From: a virus
Lineage: Duplodnaviria > Heunggongvirae > Uroviricota > Caudoviricetes
DNA: 64,000 nt
Strand: one strand, 5' to 3'
Virus record (IMG/VR): IMGVR_UViG_3300028833_000001
Span: 127,171 to 191,170 of that record
A model generated the notes under the pieces. It saw only the letters and a list, made by a program, of their open reading frames with translations. It made no database searches and was not told where the DNA came from. The position numbers and the translations under genes were made by a program. Of this stretch, positions 28,160-64,000 are shown in pieces (within the stretch, counting starts at the first letter, position 1; the number at the start of each line of letters is the position of its first letter).

Positions 28160-28948
28160 TTACAATACGTTTGCTGTAAATTGTTTAATGAATTTTATGT
28201 TTTGTGGTGGAATATTTTCGTATGTGAAGTATGCATCGAAGTCTTCAACGTTCCAGTCCCTGTAGAATTTGACGTTGTTGAGTCCTTTTAATGAAATGCC
28301 GAAAAGTGCATATTCTCCGTTATTGTATTGGTTTCTGTCCACGGTATAGAGCATGTCGGCCATCATTTGTGGGTTGTCTTTATTTCCGTCATTATAAATA
28401 AGGTGGACTCTGTCTGGGTATACCAGGAATTGGTTTTTGGATTTCGGGACCAAGCCGTTTTTGAGGATTTTATCTGCATATCGTATTGGTGATACATGGA
28501 AAAACGTGTTGCCTCTTTTTTTTCTGAATTCAGAGCCTTTTATATATTCGTCGAATTTTGGTTCGAATTGCATCATAACTACACCATTAATTATCTTCTC
28601 GAAAGAACAGAAATATCCAAAAACATCCATCGCGTGCTTCAATGTTTTTATTGACGGCGATTTTTTTTTGATTTTAACAATGAATTGTTTTATGTCTTCT
28701 TGCGCCGAAAATGATATAAAGTCATGATTTGCGTTTCGTTGTATATATTTTACAACCCACTCAAACGGATAAGTTCTAACAAGGCCCTCTTCCACTAAAG
28801 CTCTTTCTAGTATTTGGTCTTCTGGGTTTGTGAAATGCCTGAATTCATTTGACGGGAATGGTTTGGCTTCGCCAATTATCGTCTTTATCGTGGATTTCAC
28901 GATTCCCTCTATATGATTTTTCAATTCTTGTTCTGTAATTTTCATCAC
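28160..28948 (-). CDS. hypothetical protein carrying the recurrent N-terminal I-T-E-Q-E-L-K motif
   Basis: 262 aa starting MMKITEQELKNHIEGIVKSTIKTIIGE. Confidence 0.5.
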   Translation of the reverse strand: MMKITEQELKNHIEGIVKSTIKTIIGEAKPFPSNEFRHFTNPEDQILERALVEEGLVRTYPFEWVVKYIQRNANHDFISFSAQEDIKQFIVKIKKKSPSIKTLKHAMDVFGYFCSFEKIINGVVMMQFEPKFDEYIKGSEFRKKRGNTFFHVSPIRYADKILKNGLVPKSKNQFLVYPDRVHLIYNDGNKDNPQMMADMLYTVDRNQYNNGEYALFGISLKGLNNVKFYRDWNVEDFDAYFTYENIPPQNIKFIKQFTANVL

Positions 28949-29095
28949 TATGTTTTTTCTTTAAATATCTTGATAACTTTAATTTAATAATATAAAAATT
29001 TAATTTAATTGGCAAGTTTACTTATTTCTTGATATTTATATGGTGATAATCATACTATTATAGTATATAATGAATCAAAGAAAAATTAGTTATTA

Positions 29096-31486
29096 ATGAA
29101 AAAGATACGTTTGACGGAAGAACAATTTATAGAATATCTCGCAAAGAGTCTTTGTGAATCTTTCTTGCAAGAGAAAGGGTCTGAAGGAAAGGGCATAAAC
29201 GCATTTGCGCAAAGAAGGGCGACAGATGTGATAAACCAGATAAAAGACAAGGCTGGTCTGGCTGGTTATGATTCTGACAGCGACATAATGAAATTGGCTG
29301 ATGAGTACGGTATAAATCCAGATTCATTAAGAAGGGATTTTGACAAACAGAAATATATGGATTACCGTAAAAAGGAAATTGATAGGTTGCAGAAGGACTC
29401 AAAAGAGATAAACAAGTGGATTTGTAAGTACATTGACCAATTAAGGGCTTGTTGTGCTGGTGAGTCTTTTATGAGAGACAAAGACAGTTTCAAGATTGAC
29501 AAGGATGGAAATATGCACACGCATAATACTGGTGATACGCCAATGGCTTTTGACAAGATAAAAGACCAGAAGACACGTGCTAATGTTTTGAGACTGAAAG
29601 ATTTTTTGGATAAGATAGGCCTATCGTGTCTTTATAGGGATGCCCCAGCCCCAAAGGGATATCAGAAGAAATACGGTGTGGAATCTTTGGCTTCATTAAA
29701 TAAAAACACGTCTAAGAAAGAGATTATGGCCATGGACTTCATGTCTGCCAGTGATGATGAACTATATGATTTCTACAGCAGTGGAACCAGATATGACACT
29801 ATTAACAAAGATGCTGCGGCTAATTCACCAGGTTTTGATATTAAGGATTCAAAGCGTGATACATTTAATGCGGAAGAAAACGCATATGTAAAAGTGGCCG
29901 CAAAAGTTGGCTTGTTAAAACAACGTTGTGACAGATATCTTGACAGGACATATGGTGTGACTCTAGATTTTGGTGAGAACAACGACATGTTTAAGTTTGG
30001 CAACGCTAAAATACATGATGACACATTAATTGTTAATTTCGAGTCGGCTTTCAGGTGCCCTGCGTGGAACGAGTGCATTCTTAAAGACGCATGTTATGCC
30101 AAAGCAAGTGAGGTTGGATATGACAATACATTGTCTTCAAACTTGAAAAAAGGATTCATATGGTCTCAAACAAAAGAAGACAAGGGGCTTATGGATGCCA
30201 TGTGTGTTTTAATAAGGTCATGCATGTTTGATTATACAAGCGCTTGGCCTAAAATTAGCGCACTTAAAACGTTCAATGACAATAAAGAATACAAACAAAG
30301 ATACAAGGATGCGCTTAATGCGGCCCCAAGTGAAAAAGTAAAGGGTGTTAGAAGCCAGAAAACCGAACAGGGTGCGTTAATGCTTGCTAAGATGACGTTT
30401 TCTGATATACAGAGAGAGTTTGGTGACGAAGCAATTGACATATTGAAAAATGGTGTTGCTAGAAAAACTAAAGAAGGTGTGTCAATGATTAAAAAGGGAA
30501 GTGTAATAAGGTTAAATGAAAATGGCGACTTTATCGGCCAATGGCTTGTAGATGCATGGGAAAAAATAGCTGAGGATTTCAAAATTGTTGATGTTAGAGT
30601 TGCTGCATATACTTGTCGTGCATTAAATTACACTAATGTTAAAAATCTAATACTTAACATTTCTCAAGCAAGTCTAGTGAATAATCAAGAATCTGAAGGG
30701 TTCGCACATTTCTTTTATGCCATATCACACAGGGATTATAATGATTTCCCTGATACATATAACGGAAAAGACCATTCTCTAAACATAGACCAAGAGACCT
30801 TTAAAATCACACCAGTTTATAGAAACTTAATTAATGAAGAAGGCAATTTGGTTGGGTATTATTATAAGTGTCCTTGTGGACGTGGTAAAAGAAAATACAT
30901 ACCAGTTGAAGCAACAAACCAAATAAAGAAAAATGCGGTTGCTTACGATAAAATGCCAAGTTGTCTCGAAGGTGGTGATAAATATATCAATGTTAACGGC
31001 GAATATTTTCAAAGTGTTGAAAACAAAGATATAACAACAAAGGCTGATTGCTATATGTGTAGAATATGTTATGGTAGAAACGAAGACGCTGACATAACCG
31101 TTGAAGGTGGTGGAAAGCCACAGCCTGGGTTGCCTATTTTCGCTCTTGTTGCCACTCATGGAACAAACCAAGACGATTCTAAGGGTATTAACACTAATGA
31201 TTATAGACGAATACTTGGAAAGCCAATTACTTATTGGACTAATTTGATTAAAAACCAAAAACATGTTGGGGTACAAGTTAATCCAGAGGTAGAACCAGCA
31301 TTTTCTACAATTAATGAAGAAATGACTGGGGACCTTAACCAAGGCGCTAACGATGATGAAGTAATAAATCAAATAACAAAAAATATGACTTATAGCGTCG
31401 CAAATATGATGACAAGAAAGTTAAATAGGGTTAATGAAATAAAGAACAATTTCAATAAAACATTGAAAATGTTGGAAGAGTATTAA
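29096..31486 (+). CDS. large hypothetical protein (796 aa) with the recurrent N-terminal motif and CxxC pairs
   Basis: Starts MKKIRLTEEQFIEYLAKSL and contains YKCPCGRGKRKY and CYMCRICYG. A terminator follows at 31515-31556. Confidence 0.6.
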   Translation: MKKIRLTEEQFIEYLAKSLCESFLQEKGSEGKGINAFAQRRATDVINQIKDKAGLAGYDSDSDIMKLADEYGINPDSLRRDFDKQKYMDYRKKEIDRLQKDSKEINKWICKYIDQLRACCAGESFMRDKDSFKIDKDGNMHTHNTGDTPMAFDKIKDQKTRANVLRLKDFLDKIGLSCLYRDAPAPKGYQKKYGVESLASLNKNTSKKEIMAMDFMSASDDELYDFYSSGTRYDTINKDAAANSPGFDIKDSKRDTFNAEENAYVKVAAKVGLLKQRCDRYLDRTYGVTLDFGENNDMFKFGNAKIHDDTLIVNFESAFRCPAWNECILKDACYAKASEVGYDNTLSSNLKKGFIWSQTKEDKGLMDAMCVLIRSCMFDYTSAWPKISALKTFNDNKEYKQRYKDALNAAPSEKVKGVRSQKTEQGALMLAKMTFSDIQREFGDEAIDILKNGVARKTKEGVSMIKKGSVIRLNENGDFIGQWLVDAWEKIAEDFKIVDVRVAAYTCRALNYTNVKNLILNISQASLVNNQESEGFAHFFYAISHRDYNDFPDTYNGKDHSLNIDQETFKITPVYRNLINEEGNLVGYYYKCPCGRGKRKYIPVEATNQIKKNAVAYDKMPSCLEGGDKYINVNGEYFQSVENKDITTKADCYMCRICYGRNEDADITVEGGGKPQPGLPIFALVATHGTNQDDSKGINTNDYRRILGKPITYWTNLIKNQKHVGVQVNPEVEPAFSTINEEMTGDLNQGANDDEVINQITKNMTYSVANMMTRKLNRVNEIKNNFNKTLKMLEEY

Positions 31487-31514
31487 TTGAATTTTCTAAA
31501 GTTAAATTAAATAA

Positions 31515-31556
31515 AAATGGTCGGAAATTTTTTAAATTATTCCGACCATTTTATTA
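31515..31556. terminator. bidirectional intrinsic terminator
   Basis: AATGGTCGGAA-loop-TTCCGACCATTTTATT. Confidence 0.6.
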
Positions 31557-31571
31557 TCGTTAATATTTGTT

Positions 31572-32420: not shown

Positions 32421-32542
32421 AATTTGTTAAAATTTTAAGTTAAACTTTTTGTTATAAATTTCAATTTCGATTATACGATAAATTATTTTAATAACCAAAC
32501 ATTATTTTATTTCTATTTATGTGTTAAAGGTGTTTTTTTAAT

Positions 32543-33568
32543 ATGATAAAGATTAACGAAAACAATATAAGATTTATGGTCAACAAGGTGATTAACCAGT
32601 TGCTGGCTGAAAGTGTTAGTAGTGTTGTATATCATTTCACAAGCGTCAACACTTTGATTGATATTTTACGAAGAAACGAGTTTTTTCTTACCATGGCGAC
32701 AAATAAGTCTGATTCTATTGACAAAAAAAGATTATTCTATATGTCGGTACAAAGAACAAGAAGTAATCAGGTCGGCTATGGATATAATAGCGGGCACGCA
32801 AATGTAAGGATTGAACTTGACGGGGAAATGTTGAACCAAAGGTATGCTGGTAAATCATATGATTATTGGTATATGGGTACTGTACAGGGTGAAAGGGCGA
32901 AAAATGACTACCACAGACGTTCTTTTGAGTTCGAGGATAGGGTTTTATCTAACGACCCTGTTATTCCAAATGCACGTAAATATATCAGAAGGGTTGATAT
33001 TTTGCTGAACGGTCGTGTTAAAGATGAGGTTGTTCTGGCGTCTATGGCGTTGCACATGCTTCGAGAAAAAGTTTTTGTCTATGACAATATTCGTGACTTC
33101 AATGCGCAAACAGACAACACAGTAAACGACAGTATATCCAATGAGTATCAAAACGGTGTTGTTCCATTGAATAAAAGTGTGTTTAACAGTTTGAAAAAAA
33201 AGAAAAATATTGAAACGTTACGCTACCTTTGTTCTTTATATGTCAGGAAAATGACAAAATCAAAATACGAGCTTAAAGACAAGAACGCGCTAGTTTCAGG
33301 AATCCTGAAAAAATTCAATCTTCAGGATTATTGTGGGGATGTAATAACACGTATTTGGGCGAACGAGGTATTCAGCGACTATAATATGGCTGAATTTGCA
33401 CATTTGTTGATTAACACTTCTGGTTATTCGCCAAGAAAATTAAACCACGAACAAATGTCTGACGAATCAAACAATGTGATGCGTTTTGCCGCATATGTAC
33501 TTAAAATTTATGGGTGCTCATCATTCAACGAATTGGCTGTCAAGTTTCATAATAATGAAATAAAATAA
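32543..33568 (+). CDS. hypothetical protein with the recurrent N-terminal motif
   Basis: Starts MIKINENNIRFMVNKVINQLLAE. Confidence 0.55.
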   Translation: MIKINENNIRFMVNKVINQLLAESVSSVVYHFTSVNTLIDILRRNEFFLTMATNKSDSIDKKRLFYMSVQRTRSNQVGYGYNSGHANVRIELDGEMLNQRYAGKSYDYWYMGTVQGERAKNDYHRRSFEFEDRVLSNDPVIPNARKYIRRVDILLNGRVKDEVVLASMALHMLREKVFVYDNIRDFNAQTDNTVNDSISNEYQNGVVPLNKSVFNSLKKKKNIETLRYLCSLYVRKMTKSKYELKDKNALVSGILKKFNLQDYCGDVITRIWANEVFSDYNMAEFAHLLINTSGYSPRKLNHEQMSDESNNVMRFAAYVLKIYGCSSFNELAVKFHNNEIK

Positions 33569-33643
33569 CACATTTTAATCTTAATGGTTAAATTTAACTT
33601 ACTATTTATTATTTGAATAATAATAAAAAAATTATGATATATT

Positions 33644-34183
33644 ATGCCTAAAAATGAAAATTATACACATTTTGCTGTAAATAAAAAAACTGGTTTAATT
33701 GTTAATGGATGGGATTACAGTGGATACGATTCAGATGATTTGAGAAGATATAAAAAGGATTATTTTATTAATGACCTTATTGACTACGAGTTTGACCCAA
33801 AAGACTATGTAATTTTAACAAGAAGTACTTGTATAAGAAGGGGAATAAATCCAGATGACATGGAGAATTGCTGGTCTAATAGGGGTGAATTGCCGTTAAA
33901 CAAGGAGAAAAGCACCAAGATTAATGAATCCAAAATAAGGGGGATGGTTGAAGAAGCAGTCAAACGGATTCTTTTTGAAAACGAAAGTTACGGATGGGAA
34001 GTTGACGAAAGCGAAGCGAACTCCGCATATGAATATTTGTGCAACGAAATTGGAGAACAAGAGGCAAACGCAGCAATTGTCAGGTCAATTGGTTCAGAAG
34101 CTTTAGCCGCATCGTTGGCTTATATATTCAGAATGTACGACATGAGGGGATGGAAGGAATATAAGGATGGCGAAATGCAATAA
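33644..34183 (+). CDS. hypothetical protein with an internal copy of the recurrent motif
   Basis: KINESKIRGMVEEAVKRILFENE lies at ~residue 90. Confidence 0.5.
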   Translation: MPKNENYTHFAVNKKTGLIVNGWDYSGYDSDDLRRYKKDYFINDLIDYEFDPKDYVILTRSTCIRRGINPDDMENCWSNRGELPLNKEKSTKINESKIRGMVEEAVKRILFENESYGWEVDESEANSAYEYLCNEIGEQEANAAIVRSIGSEALAASLAYIFRMYDMRGWKEYKDGEMQ

Positions 34184-34207
34184 CAATACAAACAAGAAAA
34201 TTGGCGT

Positions 34208-35020: not shown

Positions 35021-35091
35021 AAATCTCAAGCTTGGAAATCCCAAGCTTTTTTTGTATAATTTAATTTGTAATATTAAATTATATAATAATA

Positions 35092-35714: not shown

Positions 35715-35725
35715 TATAAATTGCT

Positions 35726-36196: not shown

Positions 36197-36231
36197 GTTA
36201 AAAGCTTTGTAAAACTATAAAGAAAAAACCG

Positions 36232-36786: not shown

Positions 36787-36789
36787 AAA

Positions 36790-41113: not shown

Positions 41114-41452
41114 ATGGGTAAAACGAATAAAATAATTATATCAGAATCTAATTTACGCGATTTGGTTACTGAATGTTTTGAAAAATTATTAAAAGAAGTT
41201 ATTGGCTCTTATAACGGACACTTCGGAATGGACAACAAACACTCGATAGAAAGAGTTGCTGATGCTTTGTCTAAATTTGATGATGCTATGATATCTGATA
41301 CATACACTAATAATAATAGAATTGTAATTGAGTTTAAACCAAATTCAACACATATAAATCAAGTAATTGACATGATGAAAGAATATGGCTATAGATATTA
41401 CTCAATGAACAGTACAACATCTAAAACATTGGTTGTTTTCAAACGTAAATAA
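41114..41452 (+). CDS. hypothetical protein with the recurrent N-terminal motif
   Basis: Starts MGKTNKIIISESNLRDLVTECFEKLLKEV. Confidence 0.5.
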   Translation: MGKTNKIIISESNLRDLVTECFEKLLKEVIGSYNGHFGMDNKHSIERVADALSKFDDAMISDTYTNNNRIVIEFKPNSTHINQVIDMMKEYGYRYYSMNSTTSKTLVVFKRK

Positions 41453-41580: not shown

Positions 41581-42408
41581 ATGAGTGTGTTTGAAAGTGA
41601 TGATAAAAAATTAATATCTCCAGAAGAAGCTAAAAAATTAGGGTTTGCGATACCTGATGAAAATCTTATCGGTTACGTTGACGGTGAATTTGTTATACCA
41701 ACAAATATAGGTGTTGGTTATAAAGTGTTTGAGCTGAAAGACGGTAAATTATATCCTCCAATGGTTAGAAACGCCAACAACTCTAACACCGAGATTGGTG
41801 TTTGGATACCAGCAAGTACACCTCCAGTTGTTGGCTATACAGCAAAAGAGCATAGACCTCAAGTAGCTGCAAAAGGTTCCACAAGCAAGACGTTAAGTTT
41901 TAGACCTGGTTGGCATCTTGGTAAATTACCAATAGCGTTACAATTTATAAAAAAACACAATAAAAAGCCTATGCTATATAAAGGACGGTTCGTTTGGCCA
42001 TCAAATTTAGTTTGGGCAAAATGCTATTATAGTAAAGACATTGATTATCAAGAAGCAGCTATGAGTTATGGAAAAACAAAAAATGGTGGATTTATTCATA
42101 GCAGAGCTGGTCTTCCAATGGTGCCGAAAAACGGAAGTTATGAGTATAGAACAAATCCAGACCCAAAAACAGAGGCTTGGGTTATTACTGGGGCCATGAA
42201 AATTGTTGATATTTTGTCTTTCGATGAAGTTGATAAAATTTTAACCGATAATGGTATTACGCCTCCAGTTGTAATGACAAACGATGAAATTAAAAAATAC
42301 AGGGAAAAATTAAAAGAATCACCTATTGAGATAGATGAAAATAAGATGAAGGAACTAGTACACGATGTGTTTAACAAACTTATTTTGGAAATATTAAATT
42401 CTAATTAA
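41581..42408 (+). CDS. hypothetical protein with the recurrent motif at its C-terminus
   Basis: Ends ...IEIDENKMKELVHDVFNKLILEILNSN. A terminator follows at 42446-42475. Confidence 0.5.
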   Translation: MSVFESDDKKLISPEEAKKLGFAIPDENLIGYVDGEFVIPTNIGVGYKVFELKDGKLYPPMVRNANNSNTEIGVWIPASTPPVVGYTAKEHRPQVAAKGSTSKTLSFRPGWHLGKLPIALQFIKKHNKKPMLYKGRFVWPSNLVWAKCYYSKDIDYQEAAMSYGKTKNGGFIHSRAGLPMVPKNGSYEYRTNPDPKTEAWVITGAMKIVDILSFDEVDKILTDNGITPPVVMTNDEIKKYREKLKESPIEIDENKMKELVHDVFNKLILEILNSN

Positions 42409-43039: not shown

Positions 43040-44405
43040 GAAAGCCCACTGCTTTAGCTGTGGGATGAATTGCACTCTATTATAATATACATTTTTTTTG
43101 AAAAAACAAAACTTTTTTAAAAAACACACTATTTATAAGTACATGATACAGTACAGGACATATACAATCAGGCTGTTTCCGAACAGGGAGCAGGAACAGG
43201 AACTCAAAAACCTGTCCCTTGCAAGGAACACATTGTACAACATGCTTGTCGGAATCGAACAGAAAACCTACGAAGAGACCAGAAAAATAAAAACCGAGTT
43301 CGACCTCGACAGGGATATCACTGTGCTGCGAAAAGAACACCCGTTCCTGACCAAACTCAACTCCAAGGCGAGCCAAAGGGTCGCCAAGGAGGTGTATTCA
43401 GCCTATAAATCGTTCTTTAGCCTTGTCAAAAAGGACAATACAGCGAAGCCGCCTCAGCAGATAAAAGACGTGGATAGGTTCCATACTGTGGCATACAACC
43501 AGACTGGCTGGAAGTTTATCAGTGAGAACATCTTGAAACTGAACGGTTTAGTCGTGAACTACAAGGGAATCCCTGGCATGGACTACAAGTTCATGTCGAT
43601 TAAGGAAGTCAAGCTGAAACGTGTGAATGGCAAGTATCTGCTGGACTTGGGTGTGGCAAACAGTGTGGAGGAAAAACAAACAATAACCAATGAAAACAAG
43701 GTGCTTGCGATAGACCTCGGACTCAAGAACCTTTGCAACGGCGTGGACAACATAGGCTCAGTTGTAGTGTTACCAAACAAAGCCAGAAGAATAAACAGGT
43801 ACTTCAGGAAACAGATATCGGCTATACAGTCGAAGATGGACAAGCGCATCAAGGGCAGCAGCCGACACAGCAAGCTTAAAAAAACGAAAAGGAAACTGTA
43901 CAACAGAAGGAACGCACAAATAAAACAGACTCTGCATATCCAGAGCAAAAAACTAGTGGATATGAACTACAAGACGATTGTAGTTGGTGACTTGAGCGTG
44001 AAGAAGCTGATGGAGAAGGGGAGCAACAAGCTGACCAAGACTTCCAGAAGCTTCAGCGAATCATCTATAGCCACATTCATGGAATACCTTGCATACAAGT
44101 GCCAGAACAGTAACACGGAGCTGGTGACAATCAACGAGATGTGGACAACACAGCAGAACTGTCTGACAGGCAAGCTGTTCAAGGAGAAGGTCGGATTGTC
44201 CGACAGGACTGTCATGCTTTCGGATTCCATAGAGATAGACCGTGATTTGAACGCCGCAATCAACATAATGAAGCGGTACGAGCAGAATCACCTTGCGCTG
44301 CTGACAGCGCCGCTGGATGTTTCCAGTGTGGTCAACAGGCACAACCTGTTGACAGATACGTGTTCTTGAAAGAAGTCAAGAACCCCACGGTTTCAACCGT
44401 GGGAG
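43040..44405 (+). mobile_element. IS200/IS605-family TnpB-only (IS1341-like) insertion, with GC content above the surrounding DNA and subterminal hairpins at 43044-43065 and 44384-44403
   Basis: Right end: CCCACGGTT-TCA-ACCGTGGG immediately 3' of the tnpB stop. Left end: GCCCAC-N10-GTGGG. No tnpA is present. Confidence 0.7.
43143..44369 (+). CDS. tnpB: TnpB (OrfB_IS605) RNA-guided nuclease-like protein; the RuvC motifs are intact but the zinc-finger cysteines are lost
   Basis: MIQYRTYTIRLFPNREQ (OrfB N-terminus), DLGLKN (RuvC-I), DRDLNAAINIMK (RuvC-III). The CxxC..CxxC region reads QNCLTGK...LSDS. The start was taken at Met16 of the track ORF. Confidence 0.8.
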   Translation: MIQYRTYTIRLFPNREQEQELKNLSLARNTLYNMLVGIEQKTYEETRKIKTEFDLDRDITVLRKEHPFLTKLNSKASQRVAKEVYSAYKSFFSLVKKDNTAKPPQQIKDVDRFHTVAYNQTGWKFISENILKLNGLVVNYKGIPGMDYKFMSIKEVKLKRVNGKYLLDLGVANSVEEKQTITNENKVLAIDLGLKNLCNGVDNIGSVVVLPNKARRINRYFRKQISAIQSKMDKRIKGSSRHSKLKKTKRKLYNRRNAQIKQTLHIQSKKLVDMNYKTIVVGDLSVKKLMEKGSNKLTKTSRSFSESSIATFMEYLAYKCQNSNTELVTINEMWTTQQNCLTGKLFKEKVGLSDRTVMLSDSIEIDRDLNAAINIMKRYEQNHLALLTAPLDVSSVVNRHNLLTDTCS

Positions 44406-46179: not shown

Positions 46180-46398
46180 TTAAGATAGTCTTCTACTAAT
46201 ACGACCTTTTGTTAAATCGTATGGCGACATTTCAATAAGGACCTCATCGCCTTCTATTACTTTAATTCTATTTTTTCTCATTTTGCCACTTAAAACACAT
46301 AATATTGTGTGGCCATTTTCTAGTTCCACTTTAAACATTGTGTTTGGTAGTGCTTCTATAACTGTTCCTTCAATTTCTATTGGTTCTATTTTTGCCAT
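46180..46398 (-). CDS. infA: translation initiation factor IF-1
   Basis: [67 protein letters not shown] is collinear with bacterial IF-1 (S1-like OB fold). Confidence 0.9.
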
Positions 46399-50693: not shown

Positions 50694-51287
50694 TTATTTT
50701 GAGGCCCTTTCTTTTAATTTATTCTTTAATACCAACGCATAGTCCTTAAACGGCTTTTGTTGCTTGTTCCCTCTGTATAACCACTTTTTAAAAATTGGTA
50801 TTGTAACTTTTGTTATTGCCATAAATCCATGCCAATTTTTACTATAATTTGATAAGTATGCTTTTTTTGCCTCTTCTTTTGATAAAAATCCCAACATTAC
50901 TTTGCTTTCATCGAAACTTCCGTCTTTTCCTTTTTGGTCAACAACAAAAACATGTTCAAAGTCATCGACATGATTACCAATGAAAACGTCTACAGCGTCA
51001 CCGTCTTTTCCGTTTCCGCTTGTATTTTTGAAATATCCATAATGGTTCTTCATTGTTGTATGGCCTTCTTTTCCGTTTTGGTCTTTCCATTTTCTAATAC
51101 TACCCTTTGGGTTTTCTATGGAAATACCCATGCCTTTTATGTATATATGCCCATGTTTGTAGTTGTTTGCGCTGATTTGCAATTCTGTTGGGTTTTGATT
51201 TGCATCATACGCCCTTTCTTCAATATCTGACTGTGATATTTCGTTTAAAAGATTTTTAAACTGAGTCTGAGTTAATATAATATCCAT
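50694..51287 (-). CDS. hypothetical protein with the recurrent N-terminal motif
   Basis: Starts MDIILTQTQFKNLLNEISQ. Confidence 0.5.
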   Translation of the reverse strand: MDIILTQTQFKNLLNEISQSDIEERAYDANQNPTELQISANNYKHGHIYIKGMGISIENPKGSIRKWKDQNGKEGHTTMKNHYGYFKNTSGNGKDGDAVDVFIGNHVDDFEHVFVVDQKGKDGSFDESKVMLGFLSKEEAKKAYLSNYSKNWHGFMAITKVTIPIFKKWLYRGNKQQKPFKDYALVLKNKLKERASK

Positions 51288-51298: not shown

Positions 51299-51730
51299 TT
51301 ATAAATGATTAATTGGCAACATACCAAGTGGTGATATTTTATCATCAAACCAATAATTTATTATTTTATTCATGAAAAGTTGCCTTTCATTCTTATCTGA
51401 AAACATGTTTTGGAATCGTGTAATAACTTGGTCCTCTAAATCGTCTAAATACATGTTTCGTAAAATGTTTCCGCTATCTTTGTCCAATAAACCAACCACT
51501 TTTACCTTTTCTTGCATGCCGTTTGGGCCAATTCTAGTCATTGTAGCCCTTTCAAAATTATTGTCCAAAAATTTTTTAACAATTTTTACTTTGTTTGGGT
51601 CTATACAATACGGTTTGTTGGTGGATTTCATACCAGGATTTTGCGGGCCTGGTTCAGAATATATTTCTTTTCCAGATAAGTTTTCCATCAACAATTTGAA
51701 TTGCTTTTCATTTAAAATAATGTTTCTCAT
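51299..51730 (-). CDS. hypothetical protein with the recurrent N-terminal motif
   Basis: Starts MRNIILNEKQFKLLMENL. Confidence 0.5.
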   Translation of the reverse strand: MRNIILNEKQFKLLMENLSGKEIYSEPGPQNPGMKSTNKPYCIDPNKVKIVKKFLDNNFERATMTRIGPNGMQEKVKVVGLLDKDSGNILRNMYLDDLEDQVITRFQNMFSDKNERQLFMNKIINYWFDDKISPLGMLPINHL

Positions 51731-51812: not shown

Positions 51813-54362
51813 CTATCTAACAGTAACACATTCATCGTTTTTATTGATTTCTGCATAAAATACATGCTCGTTGTCATATGTGTTTTCTATTAGTAAATCA
51901 GTTATCTGATTTTCAATAATATCCTGAATTGCCCTTATAATTGGCCTTGCACCATATTCTTTGTCATTTTTAATATATTCTAAAATATAATCTATTACGT
52001 CATCTGATATTGAAAGACTATAACCTATATTGTTTAGACGTTCTTTTAATTTATTAATTTCCAAATTAATAATTCGTTTTAAATCATCATCACTTAATTG
52101 ATTGAAATATACTATATTATCGATTCTGTTTAAGAATTCTGGCGGAAATTTCGACTTCAAATGTTTTATTAGTATTTTTTTCGTATTTTGGTCTTTGTCT
52201 TCATTAAATCCTATTCCGTTTCCAAATTCGCCAGCACTTTTTACCCCTATATTTGATGTGAATATAACTATAACGTTTTTAAAATCAATTTTTTGGCCAG
52301 AATTATCAGTTAAAAAGCCTTCATCTAATACCTGCAAAAATACATTATATATCTCTTTATCTGCTTTTTCTATTTCATCAAGTAACAATATGCAATGTTT
52401 TTTATTTTTAATGGCCTCAGTCAATTGACCACCTTCTTCATATCCAACATATCCTGGGTTTGAGCCTATTAATTTGTTTACCGCTACTTTATCTGAAAAT
52501 TCAGACATATCAAATCTAACAAGAGACTTTTCATTTCCGAATAATTCTTTTGCTAACTTTTTGGCCAAAAGAGTCTTACCAACTCCAGATTTTCCAATCA
52601 TCATTGCACTGAACATGCAACCATTTTTTGTTAGACCGACCCTATTTCTCTTTAACGCTTTGCACACTGTGTCAATTGCTTCGTCTTGCCCAATTATTTC
52701 ACTTTTTAGTCTATCGTTAATTGTTGCCAATTTTTGTTTATCATCAGAAGTTAGATTTGTAATTGGTATTCCAGTTTTTTTTGATACTATTGTAAGTATA
52801 TCATTAACCCCTATAGTCGACGGATTGTTCTTTTTGTCTTCCATCATCTTTTCTTTAGCTTTGTTAAATGAAACTTTTAGCCAAGACAAATATTCTTCTT
52901 TTTTATTACTTTCTTCGTAATCCCCTTTCTTTTTACTGTTGGCAATTTCAGATTCTGTATACTTAATTTTATTTCTGAGGATTCTAATATTTTTTGGTTC
53001 ATTACCTGTTCCAATATAAGCACCTGTTTCATCAAGTATGTCTATGGCTGAATCTGGTAAATTTCTTTCTGTTATATACTTGTTGGCTAGTTTTACACAT
53101 GATTTAATGGCGTCATCTGTATATTTCACACCGTGAAAATCTTCATATGATTTTCTAATACCAAACATGATGTCAATGGTTTCAGAAACTGTTGTTGCTT
53201 CAACTATTATTTTTTGAAAGCGTCTTGCTAATGATGGGTCCTTATCAAACGTCTTTCTATACGACATAAAATCTGATGTCCCTATAACCTGTAATTCCCC
53301 AGTTTCCAATGACCTGGATAACATTGCGGATATTTCATAATCGTTTTTTCCTTTATCAGCTAAAATCGCCCCAATATTGTCCATAAACAAAATATATTTG
53401 TTATTGGCCTTTATTTCGTCTAATATTCCTTTTACCCTCTCTTCAAACATGCCTCTAAGTGTGGTCCCAGCCATAAGCGCTGTCATGTCCAACGATACTA
53501 TTTCTTTGTCTGATAAGAAACCAGGTACATCGCCATTTATTATTTTAACTGCTAAATATTCTCCAATAGCTGTTTTTCCTACTCCCTCACCACCTAATAA
53601 TATTGCATTGTTTTTGTTTTTTCGGCCTAAAATTCGTATAATTTCTTCCATTTCCTTTTCTCTTCCGATTAATGGCGATATTTTGCCTTCTTCTGCTAAT
53701 CTATTGAGATTAGTACAATAAGACTCTATGTATGAACCAGAATTGCCTTTTTTTGTTGGTGCCATGTTTTGAGTAACTGTTGCTGTTATTTTAACAGGAT
53801 TTATTTTTTCATTTTGAACTTTGTTTTGTTGGCCTAATTTTTCCTCTGTGATTTCTGACTGTAATTGTGACCTTAAATTAGCGTATGTAATCCCGCCAGA
53901 TTTTGAAAATACACTCCTTATTGTGTTGTTTGGTGAATCATCTTTTAGTATTGCCAGAAAAATTAATTCTGTGGTTATTTTGTCTGATGTTAAACTTATA
54001 GCCTCTTCATTCGCAGTAACTATTGCGTTAAAAAAATTTTCACTCATTAAAGGCTCACGATTTGGCTTTATAGCATTTAATGATTTTGATGATAGCTTTT
54101 GATACCATGTATCATAAATTGAATCTAACGAGCTTGACATCAATTGATTATTAAGTCGTTTGTACAATAGATTATTTTTATCTGAAATACACGCAAATAT
54201 AAAATAATCTAAATCAATAACCAACGTTGGAAATTCTTTAATCAAGTCATCCTTGCACATGTTCAAAATTCTTAAACACTCTTCTGAAAAGCTTAAAGTG
54301 TTCACATGTTTTGTGCTTTTAACTATTTTTATTTCGTCCATAATATTAATGTGTAATTTCAT
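51813..54362 (-). CDS. ClpA/ClpC-like Hsp100 ATPase with two AAA+ modules
   Basis: D1: AILLGGEGVGKTAIGEYLAVKIINGDVP and SLARRFQKI. D2: MIGKSGVGKTLLAKKLA, RFDMSEF and GSNPGYVGYEEGGQLTEAIKNKKHCILLLDEIEKA, collinear with ClpA/ClpB. Confidence 0.8.
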   Translation of the reverse strand: MKLHINIMDEIKIVKSTKHVNTLSFSEECLRILNMCKDDLIKEFPTLVIDLDYFIFACISDKNNLLYKRLNNQLMSSSLDSIYDTWYQKLSSKSLNAIKPNREPLMSENFFNAIVTANEEAISLTSDKITTELIFLAILKDDSPNNTIRSVFSKSGGITYANLRSQLQSEITEEKLGQQNKVQNEKINPVKITATVTQNMAPTKKGNSGSYIESYCTNLNRLAEEGKISPLIGREKEMEEIIRILGRKNKNNAILLGGEGVGKTAIGEYLAVKIINGDVPGFLSDKEIVSLDMTALMAGTTLRGMFEERVKGILDEIKANNKYILFMDNIGAILADKGKNDYEISAMLSRSLETGELQVIGTSDFMSYRKTFDKDPSLARRFQKIIVEATTVSETIDIMFGIRKSYEDFHGVKYTDDAIKSCVKLANKYITERNLPDSAIDILDETGAYIGTGNEPKNIRILRNKIKYTESEIANSKKKGDYEESNKKEEYLSWLKVSFNKAKEKMMEDKKNNPSTIGVNDILTIVSKKTGIPITNLTSDDKQKLATINDRLKSEIIGQDEAIDTVCKALKRNRVGLTKNGCMFSAMMIGKSGVGKTLLAKKLAKELFGNEKSLVRFDMSEFSDKVAVNKLIGSNPGYVGYEEGGQLTEAIKNKKHCILLLDEIEKADKEIYNVFLQVLDEGFLTDNSGQKIDFKNVIVIFTSNIGVKSAGEFGNGIGFNEDKDQNTKKILIKHLKSKFPPEFLNRIDNIVYFNQLSDDDLKRIINLEINKLKERLNNIGYSLSISDDVIDYILEYIKNDKEYGARPIIRAIQDIIENQITDLLIENTYDNEHVFYAEINKNDECVTVR

Positions 54363-55185: not shown

Positions 55186-55209
55186 AAATACTATTTATTG
55201 AATAAATAA

Positions 55210-57036
<1,827 letters not shown>

Positions 57037-57072
57037 ATAAAAGAAAATAATAATATTTAAAAAGATAATAAA

Positions 57073-57261
57073 ATGGACAAGTTTAATACTTATGATTACA
57101 TTGAAGGTACTGAATTTGAAGGCTTAATGCCTGCTGTACTCAAAAAATTACCAACCATTGGTGCTACAGAGGAAAAAAAGAACATTAATTTTTTTGAAAA
57201 TTTCCAACGTGGGAATGATTATCTAGAAGTTGTTGATACGCAAAAAATGTACGACGAGTAA
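57073..57261 (+). CDS. small protein sharing an N-terminal motif with the fibre protein
   Basis: YDYIEGTEFEGLMPAVLKK compares with [20 protein letters not shown] terminator follows at 57284-57314. Confidence 0.4.
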   Translation: MDKFNTYDYIEGTEFEGLMPAVLKKLPTIGATEEKKNINFFENFQRGNDYLEVVDTQKMYDE

Positions 57262-57379
57262 TTTTTAGTTAATAGCGATAATATAGCCAGGCAACATTTG
57301 TCTGGCTTTTTTAATTACTTTTTTGTAAAAAATTCATACTATTTATTTTGTATAAAACATTTTAATCAATAAGTATTTT

Positions 57380-60046
57380 ATGAAAATTTTTGAACTAACA
57401 AATAAAGAAATACAAAAACGTAAAAAGGCTATACAAATTAAAGTCGAGGAACATATTTCTAAAAATGTTCCTGTGATATTAAAAAGTAAACTGAATGACC
57501 CAATCGTTAAGGTTAGTTGGTTTTCAGTTTATTCACAAAGCGATTCGCCAGCTTCTCAATTATACTGGAGTGTGGCTAAAAACAGAAGTGGTCGTTTTTT
57601 CGTGTGGAGTTCGGTATTAAATAAATGGTGTGACCTTGGTGGGCCAAACGGTAAAGATAATCCACATGAAGTTAAAGATAGTTCTGGCCACGTAATAGAG
57701 GTTGTTGACTATGAATTAGACCCATATAAAGTATTTTCCACAAAAGAAGAATTATTTTCAAACGTTCCTCATGGTCAAGCTGGCGATATGTATTTAATTG
57801 GTGCTAAAAACAGACTTATTGATTTTTTAAGGCTTAACTTGTATTCTCAATTTTCTGTTGGTTTTAATAGTGGCCCAGAACAATATTTGCCTGGAATAGC
57901 AAGAATAGCTTGTGGCGAGTTAGGGTTTTATTCTTTTAACTATGCAGAAATGAAAGGCGGCGAAATATCTAAGTTGGCTAAATACATGAACTTATTGTAT
58001 AGGTGTAAGGATATTATATTTGGTAACGATTTCGATTTTGATAGCGATTTAAACGGATTAACATATACTGAGTTAGAAAGTATTTTGTCTGACGGATACA
58101 ATAAATTTAAAGAAGAAGAAAATTTAAAATTATCTAATTTCATAAAAGATAATGATGGTCATAAATATAAGATAATATCTATCGATGATAGGCCGTCACC
58201 TCAAGCTGGTTATGTTCCAATTGGAAGCGGAAAAAATATTTTACACAAATTGTCTCAATATGTTGATTGGTGCATATGTAATGATGATAGTGAATTTTCA
58301 CAATATACTGGTAACGGAGGAAAATTTTATATCTGTTTACGAGACGACTTTAAAGCTATAAAAAAACCAGAAAACAAAAACGATGATTCTCTTGATGAAT
58401 ATGCATTATCTATGATATCTGTTTTAGTTGGTACTGATGGATATCCAGATTTAATAACAACTAGATGGAATCATAATTATGGTGGAGAAAACAATAAAGG
58501 ATTGTGGAGGGCTAGCCAGCTTCAAAAAATACTTAATGTAGAATATTTCTCAGTGTTTAAACCTAGAACAAGAGAAGAACTAGAACAATCACATCTTTAT
58601 GAATCAAAAAGTATTTCGGCACAAGACCAAGTGCACAACAAAGTTAACGCTGGAATTATGGACGGCGTTTGTGCTGGAGAGTGCGCATTAGAAGAATCTA
58701 ATGAATCAGAAGGTAAAAATACCGCAATCCAAAAATTAATGACTTCAATTGCCAACTTCATGGCTAATGAAGGGCTAAATGTTAAGCCGTTTCCAACAGT
58801 AGAACTTAATTGGGACGAACAAGACGGAGTTTTTATAAAAACTGGATACTACTCTCCAGAAGAGAAAAAAATAGTTGTTTTCTGTAAAGATAGGCATATT
58901 AAAGATATATTAAGAAGCTTTTCTCATGAAATGATTCACCATATACAGAATTTGGACGGTGAAAATCTTGATTTTACAAATAGTGATGGTCTTGAAAGTA
59001 ACAAAAAATTAGAACAGATAGAAGGCGATGCTTTTTTGCGTGGTAATCTATATTTTAGAAAATGGACTGAAAGAAATGACGGAATTAAAAGAAAAGAATT
59101 AAATGAAAGCAATAAGAAACCAGTATTTAACGATGAAGGTAAATTGGTTCCAGAAAAATGTGATAAATGTGGGGCGAAAATAGGGGTATATATTTGTGGT
59201 GAACCTATTTATAAGTGTACAAAGTGTGGTAAATATTACGGAACGATGCCTTTCACGTTAAATGAAGATAAAGAAATTGAAGAATATCTTGAGCCAGACG
59301 AAGTTGATTTATCATCTTTTAACATAAAGCATAACCTTAACCCTAAATTTTGGAAAGATGAAAGATTGGATTCTAGAATAAGAATGAAACTTCTTGACAT
59401 TGCCGATGATTTCATTGATTTTTTAAATGTTGATTGGATTGACCCAGAAGACATTGTTATTACTGGCTCACTAGCCAATTTTAATTGGGATAAACAATTT
59501 TCGGATATAGATATACATGTGATTTATGATTTCAAAAAAATAGATGATAATTTTGATTTCGTAAATGATTATTTTTACTCAAAGAAAAAATTATGGAATG
59601 ACGAACATAAAAATTTAACAATATATGGTTTTCCTGTTGAAATGTATGTTGAAGATATTAATAATGATAGATGTTCAACTGGTGTTTATTCATTAGAATC
59701 AGATGAATGGATTGAAGAACCGAATAGAAAAACATTGGCGTCATCCAAAATTAACAAATCTCTTATCTGTAAAATAGTGTCTATATATACTAAGAAAATA
59801 GACAAATTGTCTAACGAATATGAACAATCTGGACAAGATAATTATAAATTAGAAAAAATTAACAAAAAAGCATTAGATTTATTTGACGAAATTAAAAAAA
59901 TGAGAAAAGAAAGCTTATCTAAAAGCAAAAAAGAAATTTCTAACGGAAATATTATATTTAAAACTCTTCGTAGAATTGAATATATTGATAAATTAACTAA
60001 TATAATCCAAAATTCATATAATGAATTAAATTCAATTGACGAATAA
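57380..60046 (+). CDS. large multidomain protein (888 aa): a paralog-like region shared with the window-start gene, an HExxH motif, a C4 zinc ribbon and a pol-beta-type nucleotidyltransferase motif
   Basis: FYICLRDDF...YALSMISVLVG; SFSHEMIHHIQN; CDKCGAKIGVYICGEPIYKCTKCGKYY; ITGSLANFNWDKQFSDIDIHVI. Confidence 0.6.
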   Translation: MKIFELTNKEIQKRKKAIQIKVEEHISKNVPVILKSKLNDPIVKVSWFSVYSQSDSPASQLYWSVAKNRSGRFFVWSSVLNKWCDLGGPNGKDNPHEVKDSSGHVIEVVDYELDPYKVFSTKEELFSNVPHGQAGDMYLIGAKNRLIDFLRLNLYSQFSVGFNSGPEQYLPGIARIACGELGFYSFNYAEMKGGEISKLAKYMNLLYRCKDIIFGNDFDFDSDLNGLTYTELESILSDGYNKFKEEENLKLSNFIKDNDGHKYKIISIDDRPSPQAGYVPIGSGKNILHKLSQYVDWCICNDDSEFSQYTGNGGKFYICLRDDFKAIKKPENKNDDSLDEYALSMISVLVGTDGYPDLITTRWNHNYGGENNKGLWRASQLQKILNVEYFSVFKPRTREELEQSHLYESKSISAQDQVHNKVNAGIMDGVCAGECALEESNESEGKNTAIQKLMTSIANFMANEGLNVKPFPTVELNWDEQDGVFIKTGYYSPEEKKIVVFCKDRHIKDILRSFSHEMIHHIQNLDGENLDFTNSDGLESNKKLEQIEGDAFLRGNLYFRKWTERNDGIKRKELNESNKKPVFNDEGKLVPEKCDKCGAKIGVYICGEPIYKCTKCGKYYGTMPFTLNEDKEIEEYLEPDEVDLSSFNIKHNLNPKFWKDERLDSRIRMKLLDIADDFIDFLNVDWIDPEDIVITGSLANFNWDKQFSDIDIHVIYDFKKIDDNFDFVNDYFYSKKKLWNDEHKNLTIYGFPVEMYVEDINNDRCSTGVYSLESDEWIEEPNRKTLASSKINKSLICKIVSIYTKKIDKLSNEYEQSGQDNYKLEKINKKALDLFDEIKKMRKESLSKSKKEISNGNIIFKTLRRIEYIDKLTNIIQNSYNELNSIDE

Positions 60047-60131
60047 AGATATATTTAATAATATTTTCTATTATTCGACCTATTTATATGAAAAAACGAA
60101 AATAATTATTACGAAAAAAATATTAAACAAT

Positions 60132-61910: not shown

Positions 61911-61999
61911 GTAGTATTTCTGAAGATAAAAAAAAAGTTATTAAAATAAAGAAAAAAGCGCCTTCTGCACCAGTCGATAATGGTGAAGGTGCTTTTTCT

Positions 62000-62467
62000 A
62001 TGCCACAGCAAAACGTGCCTGAACCTTCTAATATTGATACGGAACCAATTGGACAAGATACTCCTATGGACCAAGATACTCCTATGGACCAAGAACCTCC
62101 TATGGACCAACCAATGAATGACATGGGAAATACTGATATGCCACAAGACGATATGGGAAGTATGCCTGAAAATGGAGACAATATTGGTGATATGGGTGAT
62201 GACAGTACAATGGGTATAATTAACCAATTAAGTGATACCGACAAAAAAGCAGTACGAGCATACGCTGAAAGTATGTTAGATAGAGATGAAACACCAAATG
62301 ATAATAATATGTATGAAAATTTTATTTTCACAAAAGGTCAATTAGATAAAATACATGAAGTGTTAATGGCGAATGACGATAACCATGAAAAAGACCCAAT
62401 AGACAAAGTTAATAAAAAAACAAAAAAAGGTAATACTAAATCGCCGTTCGATTCTCCGTTTGCATAA
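62000..62467 (+). CDS. acidic protein with DTPMDQ repeats
   Basis: QDTPMDQDTPMDQEPPMDQPMNDMGNTDMPQDDMG. Confidence 0.45.
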   Translation: MPQQNVPEPSNIDTEPIGQDTPMDQDTPMDQEPPMDQPMNDMGNTDMPQDDMGSMPENGDNIGDMGDDSTMGIINQLSDTDKKAVRAYAESMLDRDETPNDNNMYENFIFTKGQLDKIHEVLMANDDNHEKDPIDKVNKKTKKGNTKSPFDSPFA

Positions 62468-62489
62468 TATATAAATAAAAATTTATAGT

Positions 62490-63143
62490 ATGAAAAAGAA
62501 ATTTATAATAACAAAAGCCCAATTACGACACATACAAGAAAGCGTTGACGTTTCTGTTAAACCAGCTGGCAACAACGTATCATCAGTTACACAAGCACTT
62601 ACAAGTCCAGAAACACTGAACGATATAAATAAGGCAAAACAAACAAGTAACGATGTTAATGCTGTTATACAATCAGACGATGACAAACCAGTTGTCGATT
62701 TAAATGTTGCAAAAGGTGAAACAGTCCAATCTGCTATTGCAAACAATCAAGATGTTCAAAAAGCCATAAACAACAACGCTGGCTTAAGAGTTCATGGCGA
62801 TGGTTATCCAAATGAGTCAAAATTGTACACCAAGTCAAAAATAGAGGAAATGAGACTTGGTAAGATGTTAGACAATGGTGTTGCAATCAAGAAAGGTTTA
62901 TTTGAAGAAGCTGTAAATACTAACACTGGCTATAAATCTTGGACACCAGAAATACTTGAAGAAATTTATTCAAATATAGAGGATTATAGTAAAAATAGTG
63001 AAGAATATAAAGCTGTAAGGCACGCAGTGCTTGAAATGCAGAGACGTGGTATTAAATATCCGTTTTTATGCAAAGATAAATTTCCAAGCATTTTAATGTA
63101 CGAAGGAAGCTATTTTGCTAACGGTAATTTAATTGAAGATTAA
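62490..63143 (+). CDS. hypothetical protein with the recurrent N-terminal motif
   Basis: Starts MKKKFIITKAQLRHIQESV. Confidence 0.5.
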   Translation: MKKKFIITKAQLRHIQESVDVSVKPAGNNVSSVTQALTSPETLNDINKAKQTSNDVNAVIQSDDDKPVVDLNVAKGETVQSAIANNQDVQKAINNNAGLRVHGDGYPNESKLYTKSKIEEMRLGKMLDNGVAIKKGLFEEAVNTNTGYKSWTPEILEEIYSNIEDYSKNSEEYKAVRHAVLEMQRRGIKYPFLCKDKFPSILMYEGSYFANGNLIED

Positions 63144-63165
63144 AATAAAATTTCATTCATCAAAG

Positions 63166-64000
63166 ATGAGAACAATCTTTTTAAATGAATCACAATTAAA
63201 CGATATTGTTCCTTCTGTTAAAGGAGCAAATTCCGATATTGGCAATAATATGGGTTTAGAAATGAATGAAAAGATTATTAACGACATGGCAAACAACACC
63301 ACATTTTTTGGTGACTGTTTAAGCGGATATGAAGTTAATGGCGAATCATGGATTGAAAAAATTGTAGTACCAACATTTGACGGACTTTTGAAAAACAAAA
63401 TAATGTCTGGGTTGAATACGGTTGCAGATATTGAACTAAGGCTTTCTAAATTAATGGCTAAATGTGTTGAACTTGAAAAACCAGTACGTGAAAACCTTGA
63501 AAAAGCATGTTTTAACTACGTAATTGAATTGTTTGGAGTTCCAGATGATTTTATAATGATTGATTTAAAGCTATGTGATAATATTGACATGAGAGATGAG
63601 AATATTATACTTGACCCAATAGATGGGGACATGCAAAATAAAGATGCTGGAATAAGTTTAAAACATGAAATAAATAAACGAAAACTTTTATTAGCGTTAT
63701 GCGTTGGATGTGGAATGTGCTTTTCAAGAGATAGTAAAAACTATTGTCAAGATTTACCAATAGAAAATGAAAAATTGTCTGAATTATATCATGAAATTTT
63801 AATTTTAAATACTTTATTGCTGTTTCTTAAAAGCGAAGATTCAATTACAGATAAAGATAAAAAGCAAATAGGTTGTTCAATTGTAAAACTTGGAAATAGT
63901 GAGAATAAAACTCGTATTTCTGTACAAGCTAAAATATTTCCAGTATTACTCAGTGAAACCATTAGCGCTTTAATGGAGTTGTTCATATCTCATGGTTTAC
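63166..64000 (+). CDS. hypothetical protein, 3'-truncated by the window end, with the recurrent N-terminal motif
   Basis: Starts MRTIFLNESQLNDIVPSV and stays open to the window edge. It is not in the ORF track because it is truncated. Confidence 0.45.
   Translation, partial: MRTIFLNESQLNDIVPSVKGANSDIGNNMGLEMNEKIINDMANNTTFFGDCLSGYEVNGESWIEKIVVPTFDGLLKNKIMSGLNTVADIELRLSKLMAKCVELEKPVRENLEKACFNYVIELFGVPDDFIMIDLKLCDNIDMRDENIILDPIDGDMQNKDAGISLKHEINKRKLLLALCVGCGMCFSRDSKNYCQDLPIENEKLSELYHEILILNTLLLFLKSEDSITDKDKKQIGCSIVKLGNSENKTRISVQAKIFPVLLSETISALMELFISHGL

Follow-up and report, generated by a model that had tools for sequence, protein, structure and literature searches.

A recurrent leader peptide in a jumbo phage as a candidate capsid-targeting sequence of a T4-type head

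In a 64,000-nucleotide stretch of a jumbo phage genome (IMG/VR virus record IMGVR_UViG_3300028833_000001, positions 127,171 to 191,170; the whole stretch is referred to as the window and its source as the window phage) eleven otherwise unrelated proteins carry the same short peptide, in most cases at the extreme N-terminus. We read this peptide, with a probability of about 60%, as the leader (propeptide) by which a T4-type head-assembly system targets proteins to the capsid; it would then be a longer variant, apparently not yet described, of phage T4's capsid targeting sequence (CTS). The reading is built on the motif with its statistics and conservation, on protease, scaffold and capsid genes of T4 type, on the modelled folds of two cargo-like carriers and on the diversity of comparable leaders in other phages.

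The shared peptide and its candidate cleavage site

A first-pass annotation of the window, made from the sequence alone, had listed ten proteins with a common motif of about 20 residues, and all ten peptides were found at the genes and positions given for them. The list proved incomplete, as an eleventh copy was identified inside gene 62000-62467 (core at residues 108–122, FIFTKGQLDKIHEVL), an arrangement that recurs in the related contig L001 (3634-4146, VIFTKKQLNMIQENL). The motif had been described as usually situated at the extreme N-terminus, which holds for eight of the eleven copies, two others being internal and one C-terminal (Table 1; carriers are named by the lowest coordinate of their gene). 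No copies were seen in the approximately 55 genes of the first 28 kb. When the carriers were compared pairwise after removal of the leaders no significant similarity was found (best E 0.034), in agreement with the claim that they are unrelated.

The tests confirmed the shared motif and its concentration at N-termini. A de novo motif finder applied to the first 30 residues of 76 non-transmembrane proteins converged on the same motif with nine members, including 29096 and 62490 (proteins with transmembrane segments were left out after a first run had returned such segments). The summed leave-one-out score was 133.2, well above all 60 composition-preserving shuffles (mean 68.4, standard deviation 4.6, maximum 84.1), and internal segments run through the same motif finder scored 61.3; the enrichment over shuffled sequences, on which the first-pass annotation had let its proposal depend, was thus found. 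Two additional candidates of the de novo search, 21764 (VTINSENLNEYQPK) and 36790 (FKPTEEQINTYKPY), were doubtful and were rejected, as both lack [LI]-x-E and carry a proline within the helix. Using a leave-one-out position-specific scoring matrix six carriers (32543, 33644, 41114, 50694, 51299 and 63166) scored far above all 14,408 positions in the other 83 proteins, with 41581 and 62490 intermediate and 28160 and 29096 weak. The profile scan suggested earlier was performed with a hidden Markov model (HMM) of 32 leaders from outside the window and placed listed carriers at ranks 1–6, 8 and 9 of the 93 window proteins. Pairwise similarity between N-termini exceeded that of shuffles only modestly, in what is an under-powered test. 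A strict regular expression matched 5 of 95 N-termini in the window as compared to about one match per 10,000 residues elsewhere; the same expression gave 12 of 93 in LR756508 (an uncultured phage of 484 kb), 4 of 67 in another two contigs with T4 markers, none of 191 N-termini in Alishewanella phage Slickus01 and no N-terminal match among 199 open reading frames (ORFs) of 80 phage loci with giant polyvalent proteins.

The motif is retained in orthologues of 41–50% identity, among them a 45%-identical orthologue of 32543, and orthologues of the weakly scoring 28160 have a canonical leader (e.g. MKKTLKLNESEFKSHV... and MGKKIIRLTESELRNLIENTV...). Codon choice differs freely among the copies, so that the signal lies at the level of the peptide and not in a DNA repeat; a shared 5' regulatory element was rejected as well, the codons differing throughout and the upstream regions being unlike one another.

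The consensus reads h-x-[LI]-[TNSD]-E-x-[QN]-[LFIM]-[KR]-x-h-h-x-[ED] and closes with [LIVM]-x-E, over a length of 16–28 residues. The earlier statement that Glu follows the hydrophobic stretch in most copies could be kept in a more precise form: the Glu of the closing [LIVM]-x-E stands at +9/10 (short form) or +18 (long form) from the N-cap in seven of ten copies, the background for [LI]-x-E at those offsets, which were picked after inspection, being 3.7% per position. Examples are L-M-E at +9 in 51299, I-Q-E at +9 in 62490 and L-K-E at +18 in 41114, and in 29096 L-Q-E is found at +19. The end of the motif thereby appears to match the cleavage consensus of the T4 prohead protease gp21, L/I-x-E. 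In AlphaFold2 (AF2) models the amphipathic and charged leader forms a separate helix, covering residues 6–21 in 32543 (predicted local distance difference test, pLDDT, 73–79 for the leader), where a loop follows, and residues 5–23 in 28160, where about 35 residues of low-confidence linker come next. Judging from these two models the helix would start at about the N-cap residue, and the sequence pattern suggests a short beta-strand before it. In an alignment (A2) of leaders from 32543, from its orthologue, from LR756508 and from five Alishewanella paralogues, all end at one invariant Glu (E23 in 32543) which directly precedes the shared domain.

Head genes, carrier proteins and leaders in other phages

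The genes of the window are also present on a strain-variant contig (ENA ERZ27257202 k141_2937494, 360,704 bp), a close relative of the window phage, and other relatives are IMG/VR contigs of 148–344 kb. The protease, scaffold and capsid genes were read on the strain-variant contig, 0–5 kb past the end of the window. The order there is a 592-amino-acid (aa) protein, proteins of 155, 217 and 397 aa, Peptidase_S77, a 567-aa scaffold-like protein, Gp23, a homing endonuclease and the T4-type large terminase (TerL). A prohead protease gene, which the first-pass annotation had proposed to look for, is thus located directly after the last two motif genes: the Peptidase_S77 match (T4 gp21-type, 2.2e-19) lies directly 3' of carrier 63166 (397 aa), and the protease is homologous to that of Flavobacterium phage immuto (2e-20). 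The acidic 567-aa protein following it is homologous to the immuto scaffold (2e-5), and the next gene matches the Gp23 major capsid protein (2e-71). The capsid protein is T4-type, its closest counterparts in the phage collection being those of Microcystis phage Mel-JY01, LR756508 and immuto. Two observations on insertions can be added; the homing endonuclease between the capsid and terminase genes has 634 aa, and on the same contig (L008, 11879-13699) the gp21-type protease is intein-split with a LAGLIDADG domain and reaches 606 aa, compared with about 200 aa in other phages.

With small genes immediately 5' of the protease the module resembles, in gene order, those of immuto (Gp20 portal, 284, 73 and 360 aa, protease, two small ORFs, scaffold-like protein, Gp23), Slickus01 (portal, 116 and 201 aa, gp21, scaffold, gp23) and LR756508, where two small leader genes stand directly 5' of the protease and about a dozen small genes separate it from the scaffold-like and capsid proteins. 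By synteny, carriers 62000, 62490 and 63166 lie where the prohead-core genes 67 and 68 lie in T4. Searches against phages gave no match, either by tblastn with the 592-aa and 397-aa head-module proteins or by megablast with 10 kb of the window. A 72-aa ORF at 46180-46398 (minus strand) looked IF-1-like when the sequence was read by eye; IF1 is a core gene of the "Jug" jumbo gut phages (PMC12880540), with which the size, the T4-like markers and the IF-1 gene of the window phage agree.

Several carriers look like cargo, with two ADP-ribosyltransferase (ART) folds, an InPase and a polyvalent-protein module among them. The cargo-like carriers are basic (pI 8.7–9.4; 8.9 for mature 41114) and the head-module carriers 62000, 62490 and 63166 acidic (pI 4.1–5.2). 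Pfam holds no models for the carrier families apart from the InPase match in 50694 (PF18823, 6e-48), a protein whose PHROG matches fall within DarB-like, minor head and virion structural proteins. The InPase domain has been assigned to polyvalent proteins, which are said to be packaged and injected (Iyer et al. 2017, PMC5512222). An InPase protein of 836 aa in L001 starts with the same leader, and the relative in L002 has 1349 aa.

For 32543 the AF2 model (pLDDT 87) gave DarT and Tpt1 as the best Foldseek matches in PDB, which suggests a DarT/Tpt1-like ART-fold protein; in its family H31 and S68 are nearly invariant and R71 and E129-x-E131 invariant. The model of 28160 retrieved KptA/Tpt1 from PDB (E 3e-5) and is consistent with a KptA/Tpt1-like ART fold. 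Sequence searches of PDB with 32543, 28160 and the 592-aa protein produced no useful match, and a comparison of 28160 with L007 10855 only a local 'FHV[ST]' match (E 0.05). The body of 41581 (residues 40–250) is a module of 3000–4000-aa polyvalent proteins in phage contigs of 20–70 kb; beside the module in those contigs the motif is absent, indicating that it was added in the window phage. The protein 33644 is a fusion of two modules. Its N-module belongs to the NYTHFAVNK family and in the majority of homologues stands behind a canonical leader (e.g. MKRIRLTESDLHQIIKESVKRYLSE), and P0185, a homologue of the C-module, has the leader at its N-terminus. The extreme N-terminus of 33644, MPKNENYTHFAV, appears to be what remains of a lost leader, since homologues show ...L-x-E-x-x-NYTHFAV behind a full leader.

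Relatives of 32543 were then the entry to leaders in other phages. A pattern search of IMG/VR for them found none and a word-indexed protein search only three, and an exhaustive search gave 1475 cluster representatives. Among 151 family sequences examined, 150 of them from the exhaustive search, 118 have the core [hydrophobic]-H-x-[TS] within the first 70 residues, typically just after a short N-terminal peptide ending in [LI]-x-E-[GSA]-h-[ST]. About 30 of these leader peptides match the window motif in its long or short form and others differ, e.g. MKIEALIESLLEE, MKILDLLTE and MINE. Copies at the C-terminus and between modules recur in other phages, a C-terminal one for instance in L094.

In each of three lineages a leader of its own stands on several neighbouring genes that are unrelated to one another. 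Eight genes of Slickus01, some ART-like and some unrelated, were found by pattern search to start with MK[IF][DE]xL[YL]ExxLhxE, and a ninth neighbour has the variant MDKLYDSLLEE. In Mel-JY01 the leader is MIKLKSLLQE. In LR756508 over 20 genes in a stretch of 90 kb around the protease and capsid genes start with MRL[ST]E[RK]KLRRIVKEEIxxVLxE, and both genes directly 5' of the protease are among them. All three are like the window phage in having homologues of 32543 and an L/I-x-E boundary before the domain; LR756508 has essentially the same long leader, whereas Slickus01 and Mel-JY01 have leaders of 10–13 residues close to that of T4. Where regions of the records around capsid, protease or scaffold genes were inspected, three in all, they were of T4 type. 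The leaders of these three phages are neither annotated nor discussed in their records or in the literature searched.

Further features were noted in two of these genomes. In addition to its long leader LR756508 has short starts of the form M[RK][LF]K.[IL]L.E, which in L098 (22697-28576) open a run of at least five genes followed by a 'YRGT' motif; these are possibly Alt-like R-S-E ARTs with short T4-like leaders. In Slickus01 (L010 30368-30856 and 42569-45028) a macro domain protein, a ribose-phosphate pyrophosphokinase and a nicotinate phosphoribosyltransferase are annotated, and a macro domain together with salvage enzymes of nicotinamide adenine dinucleotide (NAD) fits heavy NAD use by ARTs.

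Table 1. Copies of the motif in the window and the genes that carry them
Copy	Coordinates	Strand	Gene and protein
Leader, residues 1-26, MKITEQELKNHIEGIVKSTIKTIIGE	28868..28945	-	28160-28945, 261 aa, predicted KptA/Tpt1-like ART fold
Leader, residues 1-26, MKKIRLTEEQFIEYLAKSLCESFLQE	29096..29173	+	29096-31486, 796 aa, Cys-rich, weak GP88 match
Leader, residues 1-23, MIKINENNIRFMVNKVINQLLAE	32543..32611	+	32543-33568, 341 aa, predicted DarT/Tpt1-like ART fold
Internal copy, residues 90-112, STKINESKIRGMVEEAVKRILFE	33911..33979	+	33644-34183, 179 aa, two-module fusion
Leader, residues 1-28, MGKTNKIIISESNLRDLVTECFEKLLKE	41114..41197	+	41114-41452, 112 aa, small basic protein
C-terminal copy, residues 249-270 of 275, IEIDENKMKELVHDVFNKLILE	42325..42390	+	41581-42408
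Leader, residues 1-24, MDIILTQTQFKNLLNEISQSDIEE	51216..51287	-	50694-51287, 197 aa, InPase domain
Leader, residues 1-16, MRNIILNEKQFKLLME	51683..51730	-	51299-51730, 143 aa, basic
Internal copy, residues 106-122, ENFIFTKGQLDKIHEVL	62315..62365	+	62000-62467, 155 aa, acidic, Pro/Asp/Met-rich
Leader, residues 1-17, MKKKFIITKAQLRHIQE	62490..62540	+	62490-63143, 217 aa, acidic, gp67/gp68-like position
Leader, residues 1-19, MRTIFLNESQLNDIVPSVK	63166..63222	+	from 63166 past the window end, 397 aa in related contig

The head module also contains an 888-aa protein (57380-60046, plus strand) starting with MKIFELTNKEIQKRKK, the C-terminal third of which is common to Lak megaphages, cyanophages and Flavobacterium/Maribacter phages. 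Its counterpart in L001 (6126-8501) starts with MKTIYITEEQKRKIMLAE-S, a fair leader match, and the 888-aa protein may be a twelfth, degenerate carrier.

Elsewhere in the window, positions 1-28000 hold a block of some 55 short genes on the minus strand, most of them lacking database matches, and presumably form an early region; the block includes a tRNA-Gly(TCC) gene (6967-7038) and, at 19014-19418 and 19430-19852, membrane proteins that are tandem paralogues. A TnpB/IS605 OrfB-like gene (OrfB_IS605, Cas12f1-like TNB domain, HTH_OrfB) lies at 43143-44369 (plus strand), and a ClpB-like double AAA+ protein of 849 aa (AAA_2, AAA_lid_9, ClpB_D2-small) at 51813-54362 (minus strand), adjoining two leader genes. 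A second common N-terminal segment, approximately [FY]-x-[IF]-[ES]-[GA]-[TE]-EFEGL[MI]PA, is shared by a 604-aa collagen-repeat tail fibre (55222-57036) and a 62-aa ORF (57073-57261), the highest-scoring N-terminal pair in the window, and is also found on two adjoining genes of the related phage L002 (7266-7505 and 7543-9102); it is probably a common baseplate-attachment module.

Alternative explanations and a proposed mechanism

The window is AT-rich (G+C 30–37%, by 4-kb intervals), and together with the modest pairwise excess over shuffles this would suit a chance or compositional artefact of Lys/Ile/Asn-rich N-termini; that explanation is refuted by a de novo score approximately 14 standard deviations above composition-preserving shuffles, by an independent external profile that recovers the same proteins and by the orthologues that keep the motif. 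A "common docking helix", offered in the first-pass annotation as an alternative to capsid targeting, is not really separate from it, because a CTS is itself a docking peptide for the scaffolding core. A rival in the proper sense would be a docking or adaptor helix for another hub, such as the ClpB-like AAA+ protein, a replication/transcription factory or an oligomerisation partner, with carriers that are never packaged. Amphipathic helices are common interaction elements, 50694 and 51299 lie directly downstream of the ClpB-like gene, and C-terminal or internal copies are unusual for a classical N-terminal CTS. We nevertheless consider such a hub unlikely, as it leaves unexplained why leaders end in a protease consensus at a fixed boundary, why carriers cluster around protease, scaffold and capsid genes both in the window phage and in LR756508, why T4-CTS-like leaders stand on homologous domains in T4-type phages and why the domains of the cargo are ones already met in packaged polyvalent proteins; moreover, the gene at the InPase position in L002 keeps a leader but is oriented differently to ClpB.

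A mobile structural helix, spread at N-termini by domain shuffling and common descent with a purely structural Glu and no targeting, would account for the persistence of the L-x-E-[GSA]-h-S junction of the 32543 family before internal domains of 600–2000-aa proteins and for the fair AF2 confidence of the leader. It is harder to reconcile with the same peptide preceding at least ten sequence-unrelated bodies (ART, OB-fold InPase, small alpha/beta), with its C-terminal placement, with the free exchange for unrelated leaders of 8–30 residues within one domain family and with the linker that sets the leader of 28160 off from its domain, and we regard it as quite improbable. Shared terminal peptides on unrelated proteins are also typical of sorting signals, and for a jumbo phage these could serve export, membrane association or a phage-built compartment as in nucleus-forming jumbo phages. 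The peptide is however amphipathic and charged rather than hydrophobic, and N-termini of transmembrane or signal-like character fall into a group of their own. The window showed no chimallin or tubulin-type genes, its phage has head genes of T4 and not phiKZ type, and the carriers include proteins inside the head-morphogenesis operon, all of which makes sorting to another destination very improbable.

The computationally testable parts of the capsid-targeting proposal, namely the protease, the L/I-x-E ending, effector-like carriers and lineage-specific leaders, all came out in its favour. Several points weigh against it. Three of the 11 copies are not N-terminal. The leader is unrelated in sequence to the T4 CTS, MKTYQEFIAE, and differs from it in length. 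The tripeptide [LI]-x-E is of low information (1.3% per residue), 63166 has no obvious [LI]-x-E at the canonical offsets, and Q/K replaces E at +1 in 50694 and 62490. Because the 32543 family retains L-x-E-[GSA]-h-S even where the domain is internal in 600–2000-aa proteins, the Glu could belong to the domain fold and not to a cleavage site. The T4 late promoter TATAAATA is not enriched in the window (9 matches, 11 expected). The 592-aa protein is a putative portal from gene order alone, a BLAST comparison with the Slickus01 and immuto portals being not significant. Docking to the core, cleavage, packaging and ejection, finally, we infer indirectly and by analogy.

Under the capsid-targeting reading the short beta-strand and N-capped amphipathic helix would dock the carrier on the prohead scaffolding core while the Gp23 shell is assembled. 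The gp21-family protease encoded directly 3' of the window would then cleave behind the Glu that closes the terminal [LI]-x-E, at +9/10 or +18, and possibly also at a second [LI]-x-E situated on the N-cap itself. The freed leader would exit the head, and the basic cargo would stay with the DNA and be ejected into the host: two putative NAD-utilising ART-fold enzymes, the InPase, the polyvalent-protein module and small proteins. The acidic 62000, 62490 and 63166 could be core proteins like T4 gp67/gp68 that are subsequently degraded, and the internal and C-terminal copies leaders of fused modules, which may act as processing sites between modules.

A wider proposal, on which we are evenly divided, is that the leader is a portable and undescribed cassette for capsid targeting and processing, placed at N-termini, at C-termini and between fused modules and recognisable from sequence, in a broad and mostly uncultivated clade of T4-like huge phages (Jug-like and LR756508-like). 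If so, the whole "ejectome" of such phages, at least a dozen injected enzymes and among them several NAD-utilising ones of ART fold, would become readable with a simple profile, and their capsids could be loaded with foreign proteins by means of the cassette. In huge gut phages, which are uncultivated, the majority of genes lack an assigned function; the leader would class some of these as head-packaged and host-injected. Proteins marked by it would be the first to act in the infected cell and would point to new anti-host or anti-defence enzymes, here the DarT/Tpt1-like and KptA-like ART-fold proteins and the InPase. Mass spectrometry, protease assays and cargo-loading tools would also gain a testable handle from the leader.

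Comparison with known systems

The T4 internal proteins' capsid targeting sequence was reportedly described by Mullaney and Black in 1996, and T4 Alt is a packaged ART. The T4 CTS (MKTYQEFIAE; PMC8442874) is present on IPI, IPII and IPIII, which are internal proteins, and on Alt and is removed by gp21 (PMC9026906, PMC5694885), a protease with the consensus L/I-x-E which cuts after Glu and removes CTS propeptides of 10–19 residues (PMC9026906, PMC5694885, PMC8442874); Alt loses propeptides at both ends (PMC9026906). The window leader is like it in being a short terminal peptide common to otherwise unrelated, largely non-structural proteins, in ending with hydrophobic-x-Glu, which at sequence level conforms to the gp21 consensus, and in occurring together with a gp21-family protease, a scaffold and a Gp23 shell in T4 order. 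Further parallels are the ART-fold cargo (compare Alt), the small basic cargo (compare the internal proteins), the core-module carriers at the gp67/gp68 position and the non-N-terminal copies, which recall the two propeptides of Alt. The differences are a length of 16–28 residues, the N-cap box [LI]-[TNSD]-E-x-[QN]-[LF], the existence of short and long forms and the copies that stand between fused modules or at a C-terminus; the host clade is one of gut jumbo phages of about 360 kb and not Straboviridae sensu stricto. The T4 CTS principle would thereby reach well beyond the T-even phages. A description of the window leader was not found in the searchable literature, searches with the motif string and with Mel-JY01 giving nothing relevant, and the paper on the Jug phages makes no mention of such a leader (PMC12880540).

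The first-pass annotation had likened the motif to propeptides of both T4 and phiKZ-like phages, of which the T4 half stands, on the Peptidase_S77, Gp23 and L/I-x-E matches, and the phiKZ half does not. With phiKZ-like phages (phiKZ gp175, 201phi2-1, SPN3US gp245) the window phage shares jumbo size and, if the reading is right, many head-internal proteins processed after Glu, and N-termini conserved between diverged paralogues are known there as well (SPN3US gp53/gp54). Their propeptides are however cut at S/A/G-x-E or A-x-E and often exceed 100 residues, whereas the window leaders are short with L/I/V/M at P3, and the capsid protein and protease match the T4 Pfam families directly.

The effector repertoire is held in common with the polyvalent proteins (PMC5512222), to judge from the InPase, the ART-superfamily domains and the 41581 module, and both are predicted to be delivered together with the DNA upon infection. 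The effectors of the window are mostly single-domain genes, each with its own leader, and are not strung on one polypeptide; two or more disparate effector domains in one protein, as in polyvalent proteins, are thus not the rule here, the two-module 33644 excepted. Targeting is predicted to go through the CTS-like peptide instead of MuF, portal-associated or other head domains. This suggests an evolutionary trade-off between many single effectors bearing leaders and one giant polyvalent protein.

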